A stretch of DNA of 64,000 nucleotides from Balanoglossus misakiensis (lineage: Eukaryota > Animalia > Hemichordata), in NCBI GenBank assembly GCA_040954595.2, contig CM082591.2:4635957-4699956 (forward strand), written 5' to 3'. The notes beneath the pieces are model-generated. The model searched no databases. It saw only the letters and a program-made list of their open reading frames with translations, and was not told the DNA's origin. Numbering within the stretch: position 1 is the stretch's first letter; every line of letters begins with the position of its first letter. A program made the translations under genes and the position numbers. This document shows positions 17,206 to 57,374 of this stretch, piece by piece.

Positions 17206-20200
17206 TTCACGCACACGTCGAGGTGCGGGCGACGAGTCAGTCAAGGCTGTGTTGAAGTCCAACTGAAAATGCGAGAAAAGTGAAGTCAAAACACGTGGAT
17301 GTCGTAGGGATCATGGTGTCGTCTTCGTGTCGTTAAAATTAACACAGTCATTTTAAGTGTGCGAGCGGGTCTTGCCTTGTCCTCGGCTGGCAATTATAAA
17401 CCGTCACGTCATTCGGGCATCGCTGTTTACCGTCAACAATAAAACATCATTCCGAGTTGAATAAATTAAACCACTAGCAACGACAGAACAAAACACGCCC
17501 AGAATAATCATGGTATTATGCGTCATCGCTGCTACGAAAGAAACACTCCCAAATAATGTCTCATAATTGTGGCAAAATATACCAGGTTACCAGCAAAAAT
17601 GATATTTTACTAAAAATAACCTAAACCGCGTTGTTGCAATAATTTCGATTAATTGCACTACCACCGTACAGGATCGGAGAGGGATTATCGAGCAAAATAT
17701 CAACCTTGGTATGTGAGTGGTAATTACATGTCGACAGAAATGTGTGGCATGTTTTGCTGCAGAAGCGAATCATACTGCTAGCCTACGGTCACGCTCGTCT
17801 CACGTTGCGCGATCGCGACCACAGCCGCAATAAATCGCAGGTTGTGTTTCTGTTTACTTTACTAAGATTCCCTTTATGGTTTTATCCAATCGAGAAAAAA
17901 CGCACGTTTGTTGCGGTAATGTTTGACAACATTCGAGGTATAAACATGACGTAATTCTGTCAATCTATGATTCCGTGCCCGTCTCGTCGTGGCCAAACTC
18001 ACGTATAAATCAAAGTGAGATAATTTCAAGTAGTGTTTTTCTTTCTTTCTTTCTGACAATAGTTGTGTACAGTGCCAAGTTTTGTGCGACCAAAGATCGA
18101 AGTTAACTTCGGCTCTAAGCCAATAAACTGATTTCTGCGAATTAGCAGGCCAGGCCGTCACGAGTCTTTCAGTACCGCAATGAACGATTGGGACTGGATA
18201 AATTGTCGACAGGCATCAGTCTGGTTGGCAGCTTTGAATCATATAATAATCTCATAAAAGGGAACTTCTGGGGAAAAAAACAATAATTTGACATTTTAAG
18301 CCATTGAGATGAGCCACTGAACACGCAAAACCCTTACAACTAAGCTCGCATTAGGCCTAACCTTCATGGTAAATAAAAGTTTTATTGTTTTTAACTCATC
18401 TCAGGATTTATTAAAACTGCCCTGGAGCGCAATGCGCTCTTTTGCAGTTTAGCATCATAAACAGAAAGTGAAAACACGCACTATGTATGGCAATGACCGT
18501 ATTTAGGTCATGGCGAATGTAAATAATCGTTTCAAATCCTGGAGATGTTTACCCATATTTGTTTCAGGTAAAATGTCATTTTGCTGCAAAAACGCATCAT
18601 TTGCCCTTGCCCCTAGCCTATGACTATATAGTATGTCCCCATGTGCCTGACGTCTGAAACAGTCGTTTGATATATAACGGACTCGGCGGAGCTGCCTTTG
18701 TTCATAAGCCATTCAAACGAAACGGTATTTTCTCAGCAGACGACACGTAATGTATGAACTCAGAATAAAGAAACGTCTTTTTTCAGTATGAAATTGAACC
18801 TTAAGTAACCTTTCTCACGTCTGATATCGATTCAAAATTTTAATCGAGGTCATTGGCAACCGTTTTAATATGAATCGTGCTCTATGACCTATATGAGGTC
18901 GTATACAGTATACAAAGAAATCGACAGTGTTTTGGCCGTCTCACGTTCATATTTCAAGACTTACCGGAAACAATTGACCCAAAGTACGCTCGATTTCGTC
19001 CCAGTTAGAAAATATCGTCATGGAAACAAACCGCAGACGGAGAGACTGTACGCGAGTATCCAGCGCGCGCGATACCAGCGACAACGCACTGATTCGACCT
19101 TAAAATGACCCTTCTTCAGTAGTCAACAAGACGTAAAGCTTATGCGACCCCAGATAACCCTTTTCAGGACATGGATACCGCATTCGTTAATTATACCATA
19201 ACTGATGCCTGGTTTCTGGTTGGGTTGACGTAACTATACGTCATGCTAAGTGCGTTTAAGTATGCAAATATTGCTGTATGTATATTCATGAGCTATCTTT
19301 TTATGATTCATAAATTAAACGTTATGGTTTATGACAAAACTTGCCCTGTGAGGGCGTTCTGTGACCTCAAAGATGGCCGACGTGTTGCTGGAATGAATGG
19401 AAATAGAAAGTATTTTCCACAGATGTAGTGTAAAAATTAGTGTTTTCCATGCTGCACCAACACTCCTTGTTATAAGGTAACCAAGGTAGTATTTAAACCA
19501 TTTTATCTGGTTGTGAGAAGCTGAATATCATCCGTTTTAATGGGGTTCGCCCGCATACCCGCGGGACAGTCAAGCAAGGTTTTGCTGACTCCCGGAAACA
19601 ATGCACCGATGACAATGTGGACAATCGCGAAACATTATGTACAATGGTTTTGTAGTCTAGACGATACTTGCTTTGTTTCAAAAGTAGTTGCGAAAGTATC
19701 GCTTTGTCTTCGACGAAGGTCGCCGAAAGCCCCCGCTTGGCGTATTACTACTGGACGAGTTTGGGCTGTTCACCTAGCCTGTCCCGAAATGAAGCAAGCT
19801 TTGTTCAATTTCAAAGTTCAAGCACGGTCACTAAAGTAAAGGGACAGAACCAATAATCGAACGGACCGTGCCAGTAGATTAAAAAGGAGACGTGAACATT
19901 AATCTCGCCCGTGTGGCTCTTTTAACAGTTCATATCTACGATGTGGTGATGATAACCATCTGGCTATCACTTTAATGATAATCTAGTTTGCCCTCTGTTG
20001 GTCAAGGTTTGCATGCGTGGATTGGGCCGGTAGCCGACCGCCACGTAAACTAAAGCCGTGCGACGGACAGTGGAACTGAAACCACAGATGTTTGATGCGA
20101 ATGTGAATACCCTACTTGACCGACTATAGGCTAGCCAAGAGCCACAAAAGATAAAAAGTAGTAAGAACTAATAGCTGATGGGAAAGGGAGATAAATTATT

Positions 20201-20339
20201 AAAGCCTTGATACCTCCACTTTTGTGCATTTTCCCCCCATCACAATATACCATAACCATTCAATTTCACTTTCACATTTGATGTATTTCAGATTTGGCAC
20301 TTAGGAGTGTGACTATACCATACCAGGCAAGGGCTCGAT

Positions 20340-21933
20340 ATGTGTAGGCCCAGAGGCCTCGGGTATTTGCCCATAACACTTGGTGTGATATCTATGGCCA
20401 CTTTTGTGACGTCTTACGTCATAGCTGTTCTCAGAGGAGATGTCTTGGCGGTGTTTCCGTACATCAGTGACACAGGCACCAAACCACCAGAAAGCTGCAT
20501 TTTTGGCCAGTTTCTGAATCTCTCTGCATTTCTGGGTAAGTTAAGTTGAATTCTTGTCGACTGTGAAAAGCAGAATTTATTACATCCTATGATCTCATGC
20601 ACTGAGCCATAATACTACAATGTCTCTGTTACCCTGGCGATCTCTTTGTTGAAATTCCATATGTTTCTGTTTCAGCGTTTGCTACAATGTACGTAAGGTA
20701 CAAACAAATCAACGAGTTTTATCCCGGCGAGGTCGGCAAGATACCGAAACTCAACAAAGCAGCTCTTGCCATTGGTTCTTTCAGTTGTCTTGGTCTTAGC
20801 ATTGTGGCCAATTTTCAGGTAATCTTTATTTTTTTCTGTAATTGAGACAGAGTCTTACAATGTCTCTAAATTGGTTTGTCTTTAGTAACTTATTTTAAAT
20901 CCTGAATTCCTGAATGACTTTCTTTGGGATGATTCATAGAAACCATGTGTGTGCCATTTCATTGTTTCTCACAGTAGTGCCTACTGCTTTTTCATCACCT
21001 TTCAGTAATGCTTATCCTTGGCTATTCCCTCCATATAAAATAATCTGGACTTTTTTTTCATATTTTGTTCGATTGCTCGTACAGGAGACGGAGGTCATTG
21101 TGGTGCATGGAGTTGGTGCTAGTATGGTGTTTGGATTGGGCGTCCTGTACGCTGTGTTGCAGACCATCATTACGTATTCCATGTACCCAGAGAGGAACGG
21201 TCTCTCCATCTGCAGGATTAGAATGATGATGTGTGTAGTGGCCATCGTCAGCATGATTATAGGTATCCTTTGAAATAGAGTGTGATAGAAAGAGAGGGGA
21301 GAGAGGGAGAGGGGGAGGGAGAGAGAACAGGAGATGGGAGAGAGGGAGATAGAGGGGAGGGATAGGCAGAGAGAGAGAGGAGGGGAGGGTGGAGAGAGAG
21401 ATGAGGGGAGGGAGAGAGCAAGTTCGAGGAAGAGAAAGAAGGCAAGAGAGGGAAGAGGGGAGCAGAGAGAGGGATGGAAGGAGGGGTGAGAAAGACTGGT
21501 CCAATTCATGAGAGTGACGTGGTTTCCTTGACAACAGTGTTCAGCTTTTGCCGCAGCTGGTGTAGCGTATGTACAGTGGGGAAGACACCATGGAAAAGAT
21601 GACAAACAACATTGGAGACCTACAGATGGGGTAAGATTGATTGAACGACTTAACACTCTAGAGCTAGCTGAAACGAATGAGCCAGGTTTGCAAGTAAACA
21701 GATGGAATAATTCCGTAATCTTTATTATTTTATTTTTCCAGGGCTACACAGCCCATCTGGTGAGTAGCATCGGAGAGTGGCTGATGGCGTTCTCCTTCCT
21801 GCTCTTCTTCTTCACGTACATCCGGGATTTCCAGAAAGTGGACATGGAAGCGCACATCCGACTGTACGTGGAGCATCTGGATGAGATTCCAGAAAGCCAG
21901 GAACCGGACGAGCGGACACGGCTCATCAATTAA
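20340..21933 (+). CDS. DRAM2: DRAM gene 1: DNA damage-regulated autophagy modulator 2-like, 264 aa; exons 20340-20535, 20676-20818, 21085-21262, 21545-21630, 21742-21933
   Basis: Family motifs [74 protein letters not shown]; C-terminal ERTRLI acidic dileucine motif as in vertebrate DRAM2. All junctions GT-AG and in phase (795 nt). Confidence 0.92.
21263..21544 (+). other. U12-type (minor spliceosome) GT-AG intron, DRAM gene 1
   Basis: Donor GTATCCTTTG; branch site TTTCCTTGAC at 21523-21532 with the branch A 13 nt from the AG; no polypyrimidine tract. Confidence 0.92.
21285..21495 (+). repeat. Purine-rich (GA/GGA) low-complexity tract inside the U12 intron
   Basis: About 210 nt almost exclusively G and A. 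Confidence 0.9.
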
Positions 21934-23054
21934 CAAGGTGCCCACCCCCTTGAAAAAAATCGAATCTTCCATGAGATATCTTGCCATATATATTATTAAA
22001 TCTCTTGGTGACAATTAATACATGTAATTACATGTCATTTACATGATAAATTCAGGTTTTTAAAAATCAAAAATTTTCACCACTGTCTGAATGATTGCAA
22101 CAGTTCGTGTATGTGTATGCAGTGTTGCTATGGCAAACATGAATTATTAGTAGCAGTGATAGTCTAGAAAAGATCATTTTGAACTTTATTTTGCAAAGCA
22201 CTACAACTCGTATGGATAGAATAAAAATAAGTCTGTAATAATAGGGAATTGCATGATTACAGAGTGAAAGAAATTCTGTAAAATCATCAGTACTGAAAAT
22301 TCTGCCATTTTAGACAAGTAGATTTAAATATTGCTTTATTTAACTGTAGCAATTATTTTATTGTTTTGTTTAGGTGTTTGTTTATAATACATAATTTAAT
22401 TTATATACTCAGATTTAGACTGCCATAACTCGCCCGTTTTTGCTATGATGGCAATGCTATATATTGCTTTTGAGATTTACTTGCTGCAAATGAAAGAAAG
22501 GTTTTAAGATTTTTTAAAGATTTTTTTTAAGATTTTAGTTGATTTTAGTTTCAGTTGTAGTGTAGAAAATGCTCGAGTATACTTGACAATTCATAAATTC
22601 ATTTGATACTGACAATTCCCGAAATCATATTTACAAAATTATTTAACTTGACTTTAACCAATCAGAGTATTGTTGCAATTTTCAATCACCAAGTTTTAAA
22701 AAAAAGTTCAAGACACTTGTGTACTTTTTCTGAATTCTATCTGCTTGACAAGGACGGATTGATACATTTTCTATTAATGCACCAATAAAAGACACTTGGT
22801 AACTAAAAAGAAGTCAGTTTTCAATTTGCTGAAGATATGCAAATGATCATGTACAAAATTGGTGACATCACCAGCACAATTGATGACATCATCACATTTT
22901 GTCTACCAAATATGGCTGATCAATTCTTATCTTCACCTGCAGAGCAACGATAAATGGACTGTGTATCCTTATATCAGTAGTAATTATCTCATAAAAGATT
23001 ATTTTAAAATGATTTAAAATTATCCAACTTATAATTTTACTTAAAAATGTATTT

Positions 23055-23672
23055 TTAAAATTTAGTGACTGGCAGTTTTCCATCCTCAGTTATGATGTTC
23101 ATATTGATTTCCGTCTCTTCAAGTTCCTTTTGACTTCCAACATGCGTCTTCAGCCAGACACTGGTGAACTCCACACAAAATGTGGCGAACCAACTTAGCA
23201 AGGCGACTGCCAGTATCCATTCTGATATGGTTGTCATCAGGTAAGCCCAGTTAATCTGTCAAAAATGAATATTTGTACAACCAGCATTGTTATTGTAAAA
23301 AAATGGAATTTAAGTATAACAAATGAGTGTAATATGCTAACTACAAAGACCACAATTTTTGACCAAAGGAAGTCATGAATTTCAGTTAACATATTATTTC
23401 TTGTCGCTTACTAGTGAGCTGTCAACCTTTTACCCAGAATGCAATAATGTGATTTGACCCCCTAGCACATCATTTTCAAGTTACAAAATAAACAAAAGAT
23501 TCGAGACCTTGGCCACACGAGGGCGCTGTTCTAAAGCACCTTATGTAAGCGGCGATTCTTACCTCTGGATCAATGAGGTATTCCTTATCATTAGGGTTTT
23601 CGGTGACGGGAGATGGCGTGGCATCTGCCTGTTGCCGATCAATAATCCCCATAGCAACACTTCCTGCTATAA
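23055..23672 (-). CDS. DRAM/TMEM150 gene 2, alternative terminal exon pair B (23672-23563 and 23255-23055), giving a 278-aa isoform
   Basis: gtcacag|TTATAGCA..CCAGAG|gtaaga (110 nt, phase 1 to 0), then ttttgacag|ATTAACTGG..; encodes IAGSVAMGIIDRQ..LIDPE and INWAYLMTTISEWILAVALLSWFATFCVEF.., a second copy of the family's last TM helix. Confidence 0.8.
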
Positions 23673-24234
23673 CTGTGACAAAAAAGCTCAGGAAATTTCT
23701 AAGATCTCTAAAATTTAGGGTCTGGTAGGCAGTGACGATACAGTTGTATGCATCATGTGTCAAAACCATGCAAATTAGAACATGCACATTAAATACCTAA
23801 AATATATGATTTATTAACAACATATATTACATAGAAAAGTGTGTTACATAACCCATGGAAGAAAAAATACTATGAAAACTGCAGCTAGCTCATTTGGAAG
23901 TATAATTTGCAGGCTAGACAATGTTGTGAGTTCCAGTCAGGCCAATCCTAGTGGAAATTGCACTTTCTAATAATTATTGTATAAAAGGGGGAAGGGGGTG
24001 GGGTGTCTAAACTGCACATGTGTGACTTCCATTAAGAGGTTAAATTCTTTGAGGTAGAAATGGTCTTTTCGACTAAAATAAACCCAAGCGCTTTTTTAAA
24101 TTCAAGCATATTATATGAGATATTATAAAAAATATCTTTTGATTATTTTTGAGCTATTATGATTAAAACAACTGATATGTATTTGAAAAACTTTTTCTTA
24201 AATATTATTTAGTGTTAAATAATAATTAGTATTA

Positions 24235-27200
24235 TTATATCGTTGTTTCACAATATGACAGGGAGTTGGAGACGTTCTTGGACATTCTACTGTCTGGGGT
24301 GTCGACGCTACGGTTTCCAAGCAAGACATTATCTGCGTCGACCATGTCGGGATTACGACGAATGGCACCTGCCGTGTTGGTCACAATGATGCGGATCTTG
24401 ACGTGGAAAAACTCGTACGTGTAGGTGGAGTTGAAGAACATCACAAAGATGGCCGCCAGCCACTCGAAAATGGTCGACGACAGGAACTCGGCCGGCGGAA
24501 TGTACTGTGAAATGATAATGAGATGCAAGACAAAGGTCAAAGGTGACAGTTGACAATTTTGTGATTTAGAATGTTGTGAGCACAAAAAGTGTATAGTTCT
24601 AATGGTACATGTATCTGTACAGCCTAGTAGAAATGGGAAGTCGTAACTGGAATGAGGTTTTTGGCTGTAACAAAATTGTTTGAATATGATAAATTCCGGA
24701 TATATATTACCAAATGTAACAATTATTGGTAGTGCTATCAGAACCCAGGAAAAGGGTCATTATTTATGTGACTTTAGAGCATCCTGAAGAAAACTGTGTG
24801 TATTTTATGTCTAAATTACGAGTCTGGATGGCAAGTGTACATGAGAAAAGGAGAAAAAATGAGGAACTGACCTTAGAATCAGAGGACGTTCTACTCAATG
24901 AGACATTACGGCTGTGAGCCATGGAAAGATTCAACCAATCAATGGTGTTCTGGCTGATGGGCTGATTTGAATATGCAGATTCCGGCAGCGAGCCGCCAGT
25001 CAACATCATGATGAAAATAATTTGACTGATCCACACTAGGTGCAGAGGAAAATGAATGAGTTGAGGAAAAGTGTTGCTGATGAGGTTTCTATGGTGACAA
25101 AGATGGGTCATGTTTTTACCTGGCTTGTTATGTAACGCTGCCAAGTCAGTTAAACCTGGTTTGATTTCCAGGGTGCCTATAGAATCCTGGCTCCCTGGCC
25201 TGTTAGACTGCCAAGTGCGTGTTACTCAGTAGGGCCTATACAAGACCCTCAGACCAATACAGTGCAAACCAGTGCGATTTGGTACATCTTACAGGGGGCT
25301 CAGACTGCCAAGTGCGTCTAAGTACGTATGAGACTAGCCATGTCAAGACAGTCAAAATACGTTTTAGAAGAAAAGTGGCAGAAACGTATTTTAAGGGACT
25401 TGACACTCTAAACAGGTTTGACACCTAGTAGCATTAGGGTTAAAAGGATACTGCTGATGAGGGACAGGGTCACCAAGAGAGCCAACACGACCCGGATTCT
25501 TGCGATCCACAGACCGTTGTACCGCGGGTAGAGTTTGTAGGTCATGTGACTCTGCATCCAGCAGTAGAGCATCCCGAGTCCAAACGCCATGGCGGCTCCG
25601 ACCATGTGAACTTCAAACTGGCTGGTCCACTGCAAACGAGAGAGAAAATAAGGAAAGCGTTATCAGTCCGGGGTGACGTCCTTTTTCCATTGAAATCATG
25701 ACTCATATTCTTGCAGTAAACTAACGAAGTTGCTTGTTGCACATTCCACTGACGGCAGAGCCAGACAAATTGCCCAGTGCACTGCCTGGCTCTTCAGAAA
25801 GCCACTCTGGGTCACACCTTGCTATGGGAAAGTCTTTGCGTCACTGAATTGACATATCCTACCAGGCCACTCATCTTTGCTGAACTCTACCAGGTCAGAT
25901 ATATGTATCACTTTTTATCACTTTGTTTGCCTAACTGATCAGTCCAGTTATCGCTGCCTCGGAGAAATTGACAAAGATATTTATTCTTCCTAATACAGTA
26001 GTGAGTAACACAGTCTATATGTGACCCTGTATGAAATGGTCATTCAGAGTGATGTGAGACTAACTACTGTTGCCTCAATGCATTGTGGGAGTATCAGTGC
26101 CCATATATTCTATGCAAACGGTTGCTAGGTTACCTGGAAGTTGCCCACAATGCTCAGTCCAATGGCTGCCAGCAGGCCAAACACAAAGCTGGTTGTATTG
26201 AGACATGAGAATCTCTTTGTGTTTTCAACGCTCAATTTTTTCAGGCTTTTGTATCGGATGTAGACGGCCAGTATACCTGAAACGAGAACGATATTTTTAT
26301 ATGAATCCTTCAACTGCAGATTTCATCTCCTGAGAACAAACAGGAAGCAACATTGTTTCTTTGAGTTTTTTACTTTTACACGAGTGAGCGGATTTTCGGA
26401 ATGTGCAGAGTGGCAATGAGAGAAGGTCACAACCCAATGGAACAGAATCAAGTTTCACCCTTAAAGATGTTTTCACTCATGGTGGGTGATGAGTTCAACA
26501 GAGCTGTGTGGGTTTTCAAGGTAAATGAATTTGCGAGGGTTTTTTTGCTGAAAGGGTTAATATTTCAATCGCTACAGAAATAACAAATTATGAATAGCAC
26601 TGTACCACTTAGTGACCCTTGACATGAGTGTTACGCATGTAATTACAAAGTGTCCTGGCATGAATGTAACAATGGACTGTAACAGAGCGATTTCCTTACC
26701 CAAAGCAGCCGCTACGTTCAGGAACTGTGAAAATAAACAACTTTCTGGTGGATATGCACCGGTATCACTGAAAAAGAAATAGATTTAAATATTTGTTGAG
26801 AAGAAACAAATCAGAAATGTTCATCATCACCTTTCGTATGCTTTTATTATTCAAGTAGAAATGTTCTATCCCATATTACCATGGTGATTTTACAATGTCC
26901 CCAAAGAGACATGTAACTTTTCTGGGGTCTACCAGGGTATATTTACATAGTGTTGACCCAAGGATTTTTCATTGCAAAATCAGAACCTTTTCTGATAGCC
27001 AATCACCTACCTGATATATGGAACAAATGGGATCACATGATCCAAACTGACAGCAATGATGTAACTAGGGAAAAAAGAACACAAATATTAGAAGTTATTG
27101 CAAAATTGAGTGCCAATTGTTTTAGTCTTACATATACAGGTGGTGTATCCATGGACGCTTGAAACAAAGGTGTTTTAATTGTATCACGTTGCGATAAATA

Positions 27201-27403
27201 GTAGGTAATTTGTGCAACGGTGAACGCCCCGTTGCGATCGCGTAAAACATTACGTAACTAAACAACTTGGTAGATAGATGTCCATCTTTGAAGTGAAGTG
27301 CTTTCTGCATGATGACTTACCACACGAGAAACGTCAAAATCGCCGTCGCTGCAAATATTATCGGTAGAAAGCCCCAGCCTATGTTCAGTTTCTGGCAACC
27401 CAT
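24235..27403 (-). CDS. DRAM/TMEM150-family gene 2, isoform A (319 aa); exons 27403-27321, 27064-27011, 26767-26700, 26276-26134, 25629-25452, 25035-24872, 24504-24235
   Basis: MGCQKLNIGWGFLPII.., YIIAVSLDHVIPFVPYIS, DTGAYPPESCLFSQFLN, VYIRYK, GLSIVGNFQ, VHMVGAAMAFGLG, SSTIFEWL. Exon sizes 54/68/143/178 equal those of gene 3; phases consistent; minus-strand AATAAA at 23815-23810. Confidence 0.85.
25036..25451 (-). other. U12-type intron of gene 2 (proximal acceptor; alternative distal acceptor at 23673)
   Basis: Donor GTATCCTTTT at 25451, after the 178-nt exon; branch-like TTTTCCTCAAC at 25070-25060, with the first downstream AG at 25037-25036. Confidence 0.85.
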
Positions 27404-28174
27404 GACTGAAAAATTCAAAACAAGTGAAATGGTTTCCTTTGCTGGTTCAGATACGGTCCAGTCAACTCGCCGTGTGTAGTCCTAGTTCTCACACCATCTT
27501 CTTTGGTGATCGCCCTGTTATCTTATCGATCGGATCGGTTGGTGTAACTTTTACCGTTCGCTGCTTTGTCTTCAATGAATTATTGGGACATCCACGATAT
27601 TCTCCTTTCTCGTGATTACTTGTCTCTGGTTGCAAACAGACGGCAAGATCATGCTCTGAATTACACGGTGTGTAAACACTGCAAGTTACACACTTTTCTC
27701 AAGCAGAAAAAGTGTGATAACCTTATCTATCAAAACATGACCTTTCACCCCAAAACGCCCACCTAGGACAGAACACAATTCAATATGACAACGCTGTCTC
27801 ACCATCGCTAAAACCAAGGAAATATAATTTTTATAACTGATTTTGCTATTTAGTATCTAAGAGTATCATATTAACACCTCTTTTAGAATCACCTCACTGG
27901 ATAAATTGATGAGCAGATAAAAAAAATTGTTAGGAGAAATTTTACACTTTTTCTATGGACTTAAAGGGTCTTATGAAGATGTTGCTTTCACTTGTGTGAT
28001 TAGTAATCAAAGGATTTCCGGGTTCTGAAATCTTTTTATTGTCAGTGGAAATCGGTAAAATAACGTTGAATGCATATGAAACCAGGAGAATCGCCTAGCG
28101 CCTCTGCGTAGACTCATAAAGTCGTAAATTTCGTTGAAGTGCGTGCGGTTCACAGCAGGTCATGTTTTTTATAG

Positions 28175-28333
28175 TATGTCACCTGAGCTGACTCGCATTG
28201 TCACGTGTGTGTGACTACAGCCTTGGTTTCGATCTGACAACAGTGGGGAAATCGTTTTCGTTCGGTTGTGATCTGAACTGCCTGGCTGCTCTTCCAGATT
28301 TTGTTGGCTGAGACAGGAAGAATACCGGTAAGA
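28175..28333. promoter_or_regulatory. Divergent promoter region and non-coding first exon between DRAM genes 2 and 3, with a CLEAR-like E-box
   Basis: Start codons diverge at 27403(-) and 28787(+); GTCACGTG at 28200-28207 and GTCACCTGA at 28178; + strand donor CCG|gtaaga at 28327/28328. Confidence 0.45.
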
Positions 28334-28786
28334 CACTTATGATCTGATCTGATCTGACGTGACATTTGCAATATTTATTACACATGACATGATGTTATAC
28401 ACGTACTCCACAACACTAGCACTACACATCTGGTTATTGGTTGTCTTGTAAGTTGAAGTACCTTGCTGATAAGGTGGTGGGCCCAGTGACCGGGGATGTA
28501 ACTTTAGTTTTCTTTACCGATGCTACCTGATTTCAGTAGTTTCAACCCAGTACGTGAAATGTGATAATATGTCAAACAGCAAATTGAACTGGTTTTATAT
28601 TCTTGCAAATGGGTGAAGACTTGGCCAGTGAGAGCTGACCCATGTCAATGTCAGACCTTGTTATGAAATGGATAATGGTGCTTGAGAATATGGACAGATA
28701 AACAGTGGTTATCAGATCATGATCTTTACTCATAATTTTCTTTTTATTCAGAATCTTCAATATCTAAACACTACTACACTGTCACA

Positions 28787-31700
28787 ATGTGCAAATCGTG
28801 GTGGTTCTGTATAGGTATGGGGTGGCTGCCACTGTCGGTTGGAATAATGACAGCAACGACGTTTGTGGTATCGTAAGTATTGATGCCAGAATGATTATGT
28901 CTTTGTAACTTGTTCTTATTCCCATTTTGTATTCATGTACATTTATTCCAAACTTATGAGCAATCAAATTAGCATGAACTCAAATTAGCATCAGTCATTT
29001 AGTGTTGAATATAAAGCGAATGTATAACAATATAACTTTCGATTTACTCTTTCTTTCTAGGTACTGTATATCTGTCGGTTTAGGTCATGTTCCGGCTGAA
29101 TTTCCGTACATCAGGTAATTATCATGAGATTACTGCCCCATTAAGTTGTATAACACCTGACTTAACCCTTTCACCATCATGGTTCAGTCCAACACCATTG
29201 TCTTCAACAGCAAAACTGGACATTTATGTAGGGAATTAGGGGGTGATGAAGATCTTGTGAAATCTGTCCATATGCATTTATATACAAAAAATTAATAATT
29301 TAACAAGCAATAAAGATTGAGATATTTTATTTAATTTAAATGATTTAGCAAACTTCCTGACTTTCTATTCCAGTGACACTGGTACCTATGTTCCGGAGAG
29401 TTGTATATTCGGTCAGCTTCTGAACATCACAGCTGCCCTAGGTAAGTCAAAAAGTCACAATCAAGTTGAGTGTTGTCAACATAATTTTTACATGGGGAAA
29501 TTTTGTCATATTTACACTTTTTGTTTGGATTGCAAAAGAGGAAAGTCACCAACCCGCCAGTCTTTTTTTATAAAATCCATTTTTTTGGGGTAAACACACA
29601 TATTTTGGCCACATTTAATTGTTTCAGTCACATTGCCCATTTACTATCCACAGCATTCGCGACAATGTACGTACGCTACAAACAAGTGGTGGAGTTCAAC
29701 CGAGAGGCTTCCAGGACGGTTCTACGATGGAACAAAATAAGCTTCGTCATCGGAGGCTTGGCCTGTCTGGGCATGAGTATGGTTGCCAACTTTCAAGTGA
29801 GTGTAGTTATGTGGTGGGCAGCTGAATAAATCAGTGTGGCACCCATTTATTATTTAACTTGTTCATATTTAAATGTACAGCCACAATTAGAAGTTTTATA
29901 ACATGTTTCTGTAGTAAGGTCATTGAAAGTCAAGTTATCAAAATACTGCGCTCTAGCGGCAAGCATATGAAAACCAGAGCTTTGACTAAACTGCTGCTAT
30001 TGAATAATTAATAGACTGCTTCCTACTATGTATAGTCAATTGAGCGCGCTATCATATATACATTCAAGCAGTACTATATGCAGACATACTAATTGAAATG
30101 GAGATTGCATCTTCATAAAGCATACATGAATGATCTTGTTGCAAGCAATTTCTGTTATCAGTATGCCCAGAGTGATTAAGTCCAAATCACCATGGAAACA
30201 CTTTGTCCTGGATAACTATCACAAAACATGTCCACTTTGGTCATTAATACTTCAAAGGGAATTTTATGCTTTGTATGTGGATATGTGGGTATGGGCAAAG
30301 AGGTACATTTATATAGTGTAGCAATTTCAGCATCTGCATAAAATAGCTGTATTGTAACCTTGGTGATTTGGGCCTTATTCTGGAGAGCATGTTTTTGCCC
30401 CACATTCCATCCCATCACAAACGCTAATGCTTTATTCGGCAGGAAACAAACGAGCTGATAGTTCACGTCATTGCGGCCAATCTCTGCTTTGGACCGGGCG
30501 TGGTCTACTGCTACACTCAGACCTGGCTGTCGTACAAGATGGCTCCCTTTCACGCCACCATATTTGCCTGCAGAGCTCGATGCGTAGTCTGCATTTCTGC
30601 AACAGTGGGCTTCGTCTTCAGTATCCTTTGAAATTAAAGTAACAGCAAAAAGTTACAGCCAGTGGAGCGTTAACCCTTTCACCACCATGGTTCAGTCCAA
30701 ACCCATTGTTTTCTATGGTAGGGTTGGACCTCTTAAGTTAGTATTTGTTACATCCTGACTTGATTCACTTGCATGCGTGCTTGAATACATTGATGCATAA
30801 ACAATCACTGAACTGCAGTAGAAATCGCCAAGCTTTTTCTTTAAGAAATTAATTTGTTCGAATAATATTCGATAAGGTAAAGTTTTAATGTTGGTAAATT
30901 AGTACATGTACTGCATAGTGCTGTACACGATGTCAACAAATTAAAATTGTGTCCCATTGAATAACTTCACAAAATCCTTTTTCTGTCTTTCCCAATTTTC
31001 AGGAACTACCGGTAAGTGTCGATACAGTGCATTTTACCGGCGCTTATATGTGTTTTGGGTTGGGTGTTGTCTATGCTCACATACATGCATGGATACCTTG
31101 TGAGAATTTCGCGTTCTCAGAGTGGTGCAAAACTTGCGTGTGTCGAGTTCGGGTGGCTCTCGCTGTGGTTGGATCAGTTGCGTTGATTTGTGGTATCCTT
31201 AAAGTTTCTAGTAAGTTCTAGGCTTTACCCTATTAATGCAATGGTCTAGTCCAAAACCATTGTTTTCTAGGGCGAAATTGGACCAGTATAAGAGGAAACG
31301 GGTTGAAAAGGTTACATATTTCTCAATTGTCAGCTCTGTACACAAAGTCTTCTAGATGCTATTTGGAACAAAAATTCCAAATACCTTTGAAAATGCTGAT
31401 ACGCTGTTGTTTGTGATTGACCCTTGACCTACGTCTCAGCTTCCATATTTGCTGCTCTGGCTGCGCAGAAATATCATGGTGAGATACGGACACGATGGGA
31501 ACCAGAAGATGGAGTAAGTATTTCGAGACTTCTAACTTTGTCGAATGAAGTCGCCATTTTTGGACACACTGTCCTTTGTATTTATAAATCAGCAGCCACA
31601 AGTTGTCAAGCTAGATTCTGAAGTGGAGATCAGTGAGTTGGCAGAGTGTGGTGTAACATCTACCTAAAATTAGACCAGTGCCACTGAGTGATTTGACGGT

Positions 31701-31897
31701 AGTCATGGGAGCTCTTCGTTTCTGTCTTTCAGGGTTTCACAGAACACATTCTGAGTACAGCGTTCGAGTGGGTACTGGCCATCTCCTTCCTCTCGTACTT
31801 CTTCACTTTTGTGCGAGAATTCCAGAAAATCGTCATGGAAACCCAGCTGAGGCTGTACCAGGAAGACATGGAGCCGATCAACGATCCGGAAATCTGA
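28787..31897 (+). CDS. DRAM/TMEM150-family gene 3 (255 aa with exon 5a); exons 28787-28872, 29061-29114, 29374-29441, 29654-29796, 30443-30620, 31440-31513, 31733-31897
   Basis: MCKSWWFCIGMGWLPL.., [93 protein letters not shown]; all junctions in phase. Confidence 0.92.
29162..29246. mobile_element. Copy of the TTAA/CCCTTTCACC MITE in gene 3 intron 2
   Basis: ttaaccctttcaccatcatggttcagtccaacaccattgt..gggggtga. Confidence 0.75.
30670..30735. mobile_element. Truncated copy of the TTAA/CCCTTTCACC MITE between exons 5a and 5b
   Basis: ttaaccctttcaccaccatggttcagtccaaacccattgttttctatggtagggttggacct, nearly identical to the 5' part of the 57282 copy. Confidence 0.8.
31003..31192 (+). CDS. Duplicated alternative exon 5b of DRAM gene 3 (259-aa isoform)
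   Basis: U2-type acceptor ccttttttctgtctttcccaattttcag|GAA-like pyrimidine tract; 190 nt, phase 0 to 1 like exon 5a; ELPVSVDTVHFTGAYMCFGLGVVYAHIHAW..CRVRVALAVVGSVALIC; ends in U12 donor G|GTATCCTT. Confidence 0.85.
31224..31314. mobile_element. Degenerate copy of the same MITE downstream of exon 5b
   Basis: tttaccct..atggtctagtccaaaaccattgttttctagggc..ttggacc..gggttgaaaaggtta. Confidence 0.65.
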
Positions 31898-34218
31898 TTG
31901 GTTGTTGGTTTCGTTCGGCTGTGTCATGATTGGCTGCCGTGTTACAGGAGGCTGGAGGTGTAAGAAAGATTTATGACGTTTGAATGTGCTGCTTTTATAT
32001 GCACAAAATGCGGTTACCTGCTTAAACCAGACACGAGGCAGAGAAAATTGTTCATTTTACAATGATGTCTGGATTATGGAGTTTCTTTGAACATGTATGA
32101 CAGTCTCCAGATTAGATAGGATTCTGTGTGTCCAAATTGTAGTAGAATTTCACATGCAGAGATTGGAGGTTCTTACTTGTAAATATTGTCTTTGTAGTAA
32201 CAGGTAATCATGAGAATTTTGACAGATTTCAGTCATTGTATGTGGTTCACTAATGTGACAATTCCTTGTATAGTTTGACTGAATGTTTGTTGGAAGATTT
32301 TTCATGTATGCCTATTTTTTGGGATGGTCATGCTTGTAACAGTATTGTTTATAGACAACATAATATACACATATTACAATGTTACATTGCATCATTGTAG
32401 TGTAACACTAGTGGTTACCAGTACATCTTTGTGTGTTTCTACCTAAAATATGTCCATTTTCTGGATCTCACTCTAGCACAACAAACATGAATTCTTTCCT
32501 GGTAATATAGATCAATTTTATAACGGAAACAAAATTTACAATTTTCGGCAGCGATAAGGATGAATTTGTACACAGATATCTTGGTGTAGGCTGATGAGAA
32601 AAATGCACAGGTAGAAAGCTTTGTTCCATTTTCCAGATTCAAAAGTCAATATTTTTTATCGGACAATTCAGCATGCACTACACTGGTGTAGTATTTCATA
32701 TACTCCAAATGGGACCACTTATTTTGAAAATTAAAGTGCCGCGAGTTTATTCACCGATGCTGTGGTTCATTGCACCGATCGCGACTTCGGGAGGGCTTAC
32801 AAAATTTTGGTGTGGTTACGACCGGAGCAAAAGCACACGTACAACCCATTATTTAGACAAAACCACAGTTTTACTGAGATGCAAAGTTCGAACTTGATGA
32901 AGAGAGTGCCCACTGTATAGCAGGATGGTAGTGAGCCATCTAGTGGTGGTTTTGCTAGATTTGTACTTGTAGATGAACTGCATTTGTACAACCATAGACA
33001 GTCTATGGGACAACCAGTACATGTTTTAATATAAGTTTCTGCTAACTGATTTTATATTCTGATTTTATAAAATAAAAAAAACAGCATGCAGATTTTTATC
33101 AAATGTTTATCAGCAAAGAACTTTAAGCAAAGAACTTTAAGAACTTTTCACCAGTAATTCAACTTCTTGTATAGGTAGCATGCAAATATTAGACTGATTT
33201 TCATACCTTTCAACTTTGTGAATGCAGTCAGTGAACACCAAAATTATGGAAATCGTGATTTTTAATGTGGCAATCATTGATATATTCAATAAAATAAATT
33301 AAACTCATTTATTGTGAATGTCAGTCTCCACAGTGTTGGCCATTCTTGTCTGGTTTTGACAAAAAATCTCTGTCCTCTTATAGGGTTATTTTACGTGATT
33401 TCCACATTTAATTTACATGCGATCTGCTGTCTGACCGCGCAGCCAAATTCAGGTTGAATGGTGTGAAAGGTTCCAAAAAGGGCAAGAAGATGAAAAAGTA
33501 CAACACGAGGTCACTGGAGTAGTTCGGAAAGTCGACAGTAGATGTTGAAAAGCCAGCAAAGGGTAGGACAATTCTAAACTTGCTTTTGGCTATGATCGAC
33601 CTTACCTATGAACTCTCAGCTATTAATCTGGCACAATCTTTGGCATGATTATTTTGCTGCGTAGACTGCAGATCACAGGAGCAGTGTTTTCATGCGATGC
33701 AATATCCTCAGGGAGATATGATGTCGTTCGGGCAATGCTAGCAACAAGTATAATCATGGCCCAAAATTGGCCGGGGAATTACAGATGATTGTATCAATAA
33801 CAAGATGTAAAATTGTCTCTATTTTTTTTTAAATCTTTGACAACAAAAAGACCTAGCAAATGCAGACTAGTTTTTCCTTGACATATGCCCAACAGCAGTG
33901 TCAGTGCTTTTAAAGTTAAATTTTGTAGGAAGATGATGTTGCCTGCCTGAAGACATGTGTGCACATGTTTGTGAGCTAAAAAAAATTGCAGGGTGGAAAA
34001 AGACTGATGGAGATTAACATCAAGAGTCACAGAACAGACTATTTTATTCTAAATTGAAGTGGCCTCGAATTTGTCAGTATTTGAAATTCCAAATGGCTGT
34101 GCTGCCAGAACTCTGCACTATGGTAAAAAAATTGAAAAAAAAGCACTTCTATCGGTAGTTTTATGAAAATCTGTCCTTCGGGCCTGCAGACTGAAAAATA
34201 CAAGAGGCAGGCAGAGTC

Positions 34219-57281: not shown

Positions 57282-57374
57282 TTAACCCTTTCACCACCAT
57301 GGTTTGGTCCAAACCCATTGTTTTCTATGGTAAGGTTGGACCTGTAAAGAAGAAACTGGGGGTGAAAGGGTTAA
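57282..57374. mobile_element. 85-bp MITE, TTAA target site, CCC..GGG ends (piggyBac-like); best-preserved of five copies
   Basis: TTAA-CCCTTTCACC...GGTGAAAGGG-TTAA. Confidence 0.85.

Follow-up and report, generated by a model that had tools for sequence, protein, structure and literature searches.

In the JNK2 gene, a layout in which two alternative exons are separated by an intron with a U12-type start and a U2-type end is unspliceable and makes the exons mutually exclusive (PMC1874599). Exons of TMEM87A and TMEM87B behave like those of JNK2 (PMC8329584), and a survey of human genes assigned 5 of 629 clusters to spliceosome incompatibility, the rarest of the routes listed (PMC5740500). A preliminary description of the locus studied here, which proposed the same mechanism for a gene of the DRAM family, had cited JNK as the precedent and stated that few examples are known. 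The JNK precedent holds, but TMEM87A/B are also known, and five human clusters have been counted. A literature search, with subscription papers outside its scope, found no mutually exclusive exons described in DRAM genes or in hemichordates.

The window, a stretch of 64,000 nucleotides of the acorn worm Balanoglossus misakiensis, contains three DRAM-family genes in tandem, the third of which has two versions of coding exon 5, named 5a and 5b. The features are as follows.

20340-21933, + strand: DRAM gene 1
about 27400-23055, - strand: DRAM gene 2
28787-31897, + strand: DRAM gene 3
28787-28872, + strand: gene 3 coding exon 1, with the ATG at 28787
29061-29114, + strand: gene 3 coding exon 2
29374-29441, + strand: gene 3 coding exon 3
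29654-29796, + strand: gene 3 coding exon 4, followed by a U2 donor, GTGAGT, phase 0
30443-30620, + strand: gene 3 alternative exon 5a, 178 nt, 59 aa, with a weak U2 acceptor
30621-30629, + strand: U12-type donor of 5a, exon end CA followed by GTATCCTTT
30621-31002, + strand: hybrid intron between 5a and 5b, U12 5' end and U2 3' end, 382 nt
31003-31192, + strand: gene 3 alternative exon 5b, 190 nt, 63 aa, with a strong U2 acceptor
31193-31200, + strand: U12-type donor of 5b, exon end TG followed by GTATCCTT
31211-31216, + strand: possible in-frame U2 donor, GTAAGT, 18 nt past the 5b U12 donor, adding 6 residues if used
31421-31428, + strand: U12 branch site CCCTTGAC, whose branch A precedes the shared acceptor by 12 nt
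31440-31513, + strand: gene 3 exon 6, common to both isoforms
31733-31897, + strand: gene 3 coding exon 7, the last, with the stop

Recomputation confirmed the coordinates, lengths (178 and 190 nt), phases and open frames previously given for 5a and 5b. The two are homologous tandem exons, both stop-free and both running from phase 0 to phase 1, with an identity of 27-29%; a stop-free frame of 63 codons arose by chance at 38 of 2720 overlapping non-coding positions. Both aligned to positions about 116-175 of the Pfam family PF10277 (Frag1/DRAM/Sfk1), 5a with an E-value of 6e-8 and 5b with an E-value of 0.0085, which is under the curated cut-off. The predicted isoforms of gene 3 measured 255 aa with 5a and 259 aa with 5b. 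Gene 1 was found to be without the first two introns of genes 2 and 3, a single exon (20340-20535) encoding residues 1-69.

The sequence GTATCCTT was located directly after both 5a (at 30621) and 5b (at 31193). It occurred five times among the 7859 GT dinucleotides on both strands of the window, and four of these five copies marked the end of the homologous exon in DRAM genes 1, 2 and 3. The 5a and 5b donors exhibited 0 and 1 mismatch, respectively, to RTATCCTTT, and three mismatches to GTRAGT. Among the 17 introns compared, the four with GTATCCTT donors all had three mismatches to GTRAGT, versus two at most in the other 13. The exon ends CA and TG are contexts in which authentic U12 introns occur; an AG at the exon end, by contrast, promotes splicing by the U2 machinery (PMC10853781). 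The preliminary claim that a U12 donor follows each copy was borne out by the match to RTATCCTTT and by the exon-end contexts.

Between 30621 and 31439, a single perfect CCTTRAY core was observed, at 31422, before the exon 6 acceptor. Five one-mismatch cores were also present, none positioned before the 5b acceptor, and such cores are non-specific, as they were also found at some U2 acceptors. The best core at the 5a and 5b acceptors had two mismatches; the sole perfect cores close to an acceptor were those of gene 1 (13 nt from the AG) and of gene 3 exon 6 (12 nt). The pyrimidine fraction of the acceptors was 0.59 for 5a, 0.82 for 5b and 0.71 for exon 6. Since a U12 donor follows 5a and the only perfect branch core precedes exon 6, the intron between 5a and 5b is of the U12-5'/U2-3' type. 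This layout agrees with the preliminary description, which had placed U2 acceptors before 5a and 5b, a lone U12 branch site before exon 6, and a hybrid intron between the two copies.

In gene 1, the U12 donor (21261-21271) is found in an AG context, the exon end AG being followed by GTATCCTTT, with a perfect branch site at 21524. The AG context is reported to be absent from validated human U12 GT-AG introns (PMC10853781), so the gene 1 intron may be dual or converting. Splicing of this intron passes over an AG that lies 7 nt ahead of the true acceptor.

With this arrangement, the major spliceosome would join exon 4 to 5a or to 5b, and the minor spliceosome would join whichever exon 5 had been chosen to exon 6. 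The intron between the two copies, with its U12 start and U2 end, would be removable by neither, which accounts for either-or use. We thus consider that 5a and 5b are likely spliced one at a time and, from a reading of the splice signals, that spliceosome incompatibility quite probably locks out the joining of 5a to 5b. Two lines of evidence support the mutually exclusive use proposed earlier, namely the isoform pairs annotated for three further acorn worms and the JNK-like layout of the signals. Against the lock, the isoforms of these relatives are database models, the relatives being represented by their proteins, and a frameshift alone could hide joined transcripts. Moreover, U12-looking donors are sometimes joined to U2 acceptors, as in a RABGGTA minigene (PMC10853781).

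The two possible errors were computed to differ in their consequences. Joining 5a to 5b shifts the frame; the resulting stop, codon 210, precedes the last junction by 163 nt, which makes the product a substrate for NMD, and occasional joins would thus be cleared. Skipping both exons gives a stop, codon 149, that lies 22 nt into the last exon, and this product would escape junction-dependent NMD. The preliminary description had stated that either error would shift the frame, which was the case. It had also considered skipping of both exons to be blocked, which is not safely so: with its pyrimidine fraction, the exon 6 acceptor could be used by the U2 spliceosome, and the U12 acceptor of human DRAM2 belongs to a set of three efficient dual-type sites and is also joined to a U2 donor lying 17 nt upstream (PMC10853781). 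Skipping would therefore be guarded only partly, and the lock against it is weaker than the one claimed earlier. Two further forms were predicted: use of the GTAAGT 18 nt past the 5b donor could yield an in-frame 265-aa form, and an exon 4 to exon 7 join, which is U2-compatible and in frame (171 aa), would resemble an event in mouse Dram2.

A search with the last exon matched two of three candidates, which were isoforms X1 and X2 of Ptychodera flava. The difference between these isoforms is confined to residues 118-175, the X1 exon being the counterpart of 5a and the X2 exon that of 5b, and a second P. flava gene copy carries an equivalent pair. Among the best 120 of 526 matches of a profile search, pairs were also identified in Glandiceps talaboti (XP_077994804.1 and XP_077994802.1) and Saccoglossus kowalevskii (XP_077868916.1 and XP_077868915.1). 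The pairs of all three species are RefSeq automatic gene models that differ only in exon 5; gene models of this type are usually backed by RNA-seq. The acorn-worm isoforms were thus already present in RefSeq as automatic models, and the mechanism was known; the instance itself is real and conserved. The gene 3 proteins shared 83% (210/254) and 74% (187/254) identity with the two P. flava isoforms, and 64-70% with those of G. talaboti and S. kowalevskii; such values most likely indicate an acorn worm near Ptychodera that is distinct from all three species. For the exon alone, the identity of 5a to the a exons of P. flava, Glandiceps and Saccoglossus was 85, 53 and 46%, and that of 5b to the b exons was 46, 41 and 40%, respectively. 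A protein search with 5b alone retrieved none of the 61 candidates at E 0.01, which later searches showed to be a limit of sensitivity, and no relative was among the 206 pattern matches obtained when metagenomes were scanned with 5a.

A tree (LG+G4) was built from 20 exon peptides over 59 columns. In it, the four a exons grouped together (80/86), as did the four b exons (86/81), with moderate support and neither group starred. Tree tests rejected duplication within the species for the window (p 5.6e-5) and for P. flava (p 0.0009); for Glandiceps and Saccoglossus, at p 0.069 and p 0.24, they did not. A single clade of a and b exons was neither recovered nor rejected (0.173). In pairwise comparison with 5b of the window, the b exons of P. 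flava and Glandiceps outscored all 189 background exons, and the two Saccoglossus exons were tied (98 versus 99). The path between the window and P. flava was about six times longer for 5b than for 5a (1.1 versus 0.19), 5b being the faster of the two. The three species with pairs belong to the Ptychoderidae, Spengelidae and Harrimaniidae; the ancestor of ptychoderids and spengelids is more than 370 million years old, and the Harrimaniidae are placed outside this group (PMC11175523). Since a exons group with a and b with b, the pair is probably older than 370 million years, and one tandem exon duplication would have occurred in an ancestor common to all acorn worms sampled. Of 276 top hits, 163 proteins were parsable, and in this set exon 5 alternatives were observed only in acorn worms; the listed isoforms of starfish, crinoid and amphioxus had a single, common exon 5.

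The two P. flava isoforms were modelled with AlphaFold2, each with its two acorn-worm counterparts and the same 114 other family sequences. Both models had a mean pLDDT of 92 and the same six helices, an agreement toward which the alignment common to both runs pushes the models. Both gene 3 isoforms are predicted to be six-helix members of the Frag1/DRAM/Sfk1 family (PF10277), the folds being models of the P. flava isoforms. In these models, exon 5 corresponds to helix 4 (121-149), a loop and helix 5 (156-185) over two thirds of its length from the start; the swap of TM4-TM5 proposed earlier therefore comprises TM4 and most of TM5. H124, Y138 and R162, the three columns that were invariant in 117 sequences, are all within exon 5 and were retained in all eight acorn-worm copies. 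Conserved columns were matched at 54 of 60 positions in a copies and at 42 of 60 in b copies. All four a copies exhibited an Asn at position 129 (TM4), absent from the 114 other family sequences. The b copies had the family-type G-A-aromatic at this site, and their largest differences were located in the TM4-TM5 loop. This residue pattern suggests functional divergence rather than decay, and the 5a and 5b isoforms probably differ in function. No relative with a solved structure was found by sequence search or Foldseek. The best structural match, Ste2 (VIA-align Z 13.1, rmsd 3.6, 192 aligned), was set aside, as these values are within the range expected for helical bundles. A review presents the paralogue TMEM150C as a mechanosensitive channel for which no high-resolution structure is available (PMC11059273).

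Exclusivity could also be only apparent, if the major spliceosome made 5a-5b joins, using GTATCC or a cryptic donor at 30639, and NMD then destroyed them. Neither exon length is divisible by three, the joined stop falls 163 nt before the last junction, the cryptic donor leads to an in-frame TGA, and 60% of human clusters are of the same frame type (PMC5740500). However, the full U12 donor has been kept in both copies, with the mismatch counts given above, the AG context that would permit U2 use is absent from both, and the skipping product lies beyond the reach of NMD, so we regard this explanation as unlikely. That 5b is decaying or seldom used in B. misakiensis, with the protein made from 5a only, we judge to be very unlikely: the Pfam score under the cut-off, two 2-residue insertions relative to 5a, a lower GC3 (0.41 versus 0.64-0.70) and the replacement of the conserved Q142, S146, Y147 and P151 point in that direction, whereas the reading frame is intact, as are the two splice sites and the invariant residues H, Y and R. 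In addition, an unusual H-A-x-I-P-C-E stretch is common to 5b and P. flava X2, the b exons of P. flava and Glandiceps beat the entire background set, and the model of the b isoform of P. flava is a complete bundle of six helices.

It seems most improbable that competing RNA pairings or steric crowding enforce exclusivity, with the U12 signals incidental. Intron 4 does contain a 26-nt inverted repeat (30175-30200 with 30353-30378), and the best duplex between intron 4 and the hybrid intron was equalled by only 1 of 40 shuffles; for the remaining two intron pairs, 22 and 38 of 40 shuffles did as well, which is chance level, and a single species was compared. With one of three intron-pair tests in its favour, support for pairing is marginal. 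Steric hindrance was rejected, since the hybrid intron measures 382 nt and the AG-free zone before 5b just 84 nt, which leaves no branch point near the 5a donor. Intronic pairings could still set the a:b ratio.

The inverted repeat of intron 4 is 77% complementary (duplex -28.6 kcal/mol), ends about 65 nt before the 5a acceptor and could affect the a/b ratio. For the introns behind 5a and 5b, a windowed pairing test was at chance. A 61-nt likeness between these two introns was considered as a relic of the duplication and rejected, as it corresponds to a dispersed repeat also present at 29162, 45717 and 57282. This short repeat was observed at 29162, 30670, 31224, 45717 and 57282, three copies lying in gene 3 introns; the copy at 57282-57374 has inverted ends and is MITE-like. 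An Rfam search of 20000-34000 gave no match.

A search of representative sequences gave 142 family matches, of which 95 were without exon 7 and ran past exon 5, 42 contained exon 7 and 5 were unscorable. In 61 of the 95, the frame continued S/C/G-I-L exactly at the exon end, as compared with none of the 42 matches containing exon 7. S/C/G-I-L is the reading of x/GT ATC CTT, that is, of a U12 donor read through, and on this reading the U12 intron is ancestral in the DRAM family. Mouse Dram2 is a minor-intron gene (PMC6717393); in human DRAM2 and TMEM150A, U12 sites are bound by ZRSR2, the DRAM2 donor being CA followed by GTATCCTTC (PMC10853781). Acorn worms have minor introns, 127 of those of S. 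kowalevskii being in common with human (PMC10639083). We infer that the exon that was duplicated stood before the ancestral U12 intron, and that its copy took along the U2 acceptor and the U12 donor without a branch site; the hybrid intron, and with it exclusivity, would therefore have arisen at once. Several read-through ORFs of the family exhibited G-K, S-K, G-E or S-E in place of S-I-L at the exon end, which suggests U12-to-U2 conversion of the family intron in some lineages.

Gene 2 shows duplication on the opposite side of this intron: within 25451-23055 (- strand), a single U12 donor (25451) is followed by two alternative 3' modules, each beginning at a branch-like U12 acceptor.

25035-24872, - strand: gene 2 exon 6A, with branch-like TTCCTCAAC and last exon 7A
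23672-23563, - strand: gene 2 exon 6B, with branch-like TTCCTGAGC and last exon 7B

Among its relatives, P. flava XP_070553043.1 (X1) matched 6B and 7B, and XP_070553050.1 (X2) matched 6A, followed by an unrelated tail. In the ribbon worm Lineus longissimus, exon 6, behind the position of the family U12 intron, differs among the annotated isoforms X1-X3, so that three versions exist; this layout would possibly form a mirror-image U2-5'/U12-3' hybrid if the signals are U12. We tentatively propose, as a possibility short of probable, that the single ancient U12 intron of the family has been reused at least three separate times as a lock for duplicated exons, with the upstream exon doubled in gene 3, the downstream exon pair doubled in gene 2, behind two competing U12 acceptors, and the downstream exon tripled in Lineus.

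If so, exons duplicated next to a minor intron would generally be mutually exclusive from their origin, and the choice between the two helix pairs of the gene 3 protein would be adjusted by the activity of the minor spliceosome. Together with gene 2 and Lineus, this provides an idea that a genome survey could test, namely that mutually exclusive duplicates include more exons next to minor introns than expected. The molecular function of the DRAM family is unsettled, and the natural occurrence of TM4-TM5 in two versions on the same scaffold indicates which part of DRAM/TMEM150 proteins determines specificity.

All published cases that were found come from vertebrates, and gene 3 adds an independent one from an invertebrate, which has probably persisted for over 370 million years. 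Like exons 6a/6b of MAPK8, MAPK9 and their family, gene 3 combines duplicated exons, U2 acceptors, U12 donors and one U12 acceptor downstream (PMC1874599, PMC8329584), and in both the second copy is preceded by a hybrid intron with a long pyrimidine tract. Gene 3 differs from JNK in belonging to another gene family and lineage, and its exons (178 and 190 nt, 27% alike) encode membrane helices. Exons 11/11a of TMEM87A and TMEM87B are similar in their interlocked U2/U12 sites in a membrane-protein gene (PMC6717393, PMC8329584); both are 72 nt long and frame-neutral, whereas in gene 3 either error shifts the frame. Human and mouse DRAM2 belong to the same family as gene 3 and have the donor CA followed by GTATCCTT, as behind 5a (PMC10853781, PMC6717393). 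Both show alternative splicing around a minor intron, whose shared position was deduced from the read-through ORFs. DRAM2 differs in its competing U2 donor 17 nt upstream and in the skipping of both flanking exons, and the excerpts available report no duplicated exon. Finally, the Frag1/DRAM/Sfk1 family as a whole (PF10277; DRAM1/2 and TMEM150A-C) has the invariant residues common to both gene 3 isoforms, whereas alternatives of exon 5, among the 163 parsed proteins, were observed only in acorn worms.
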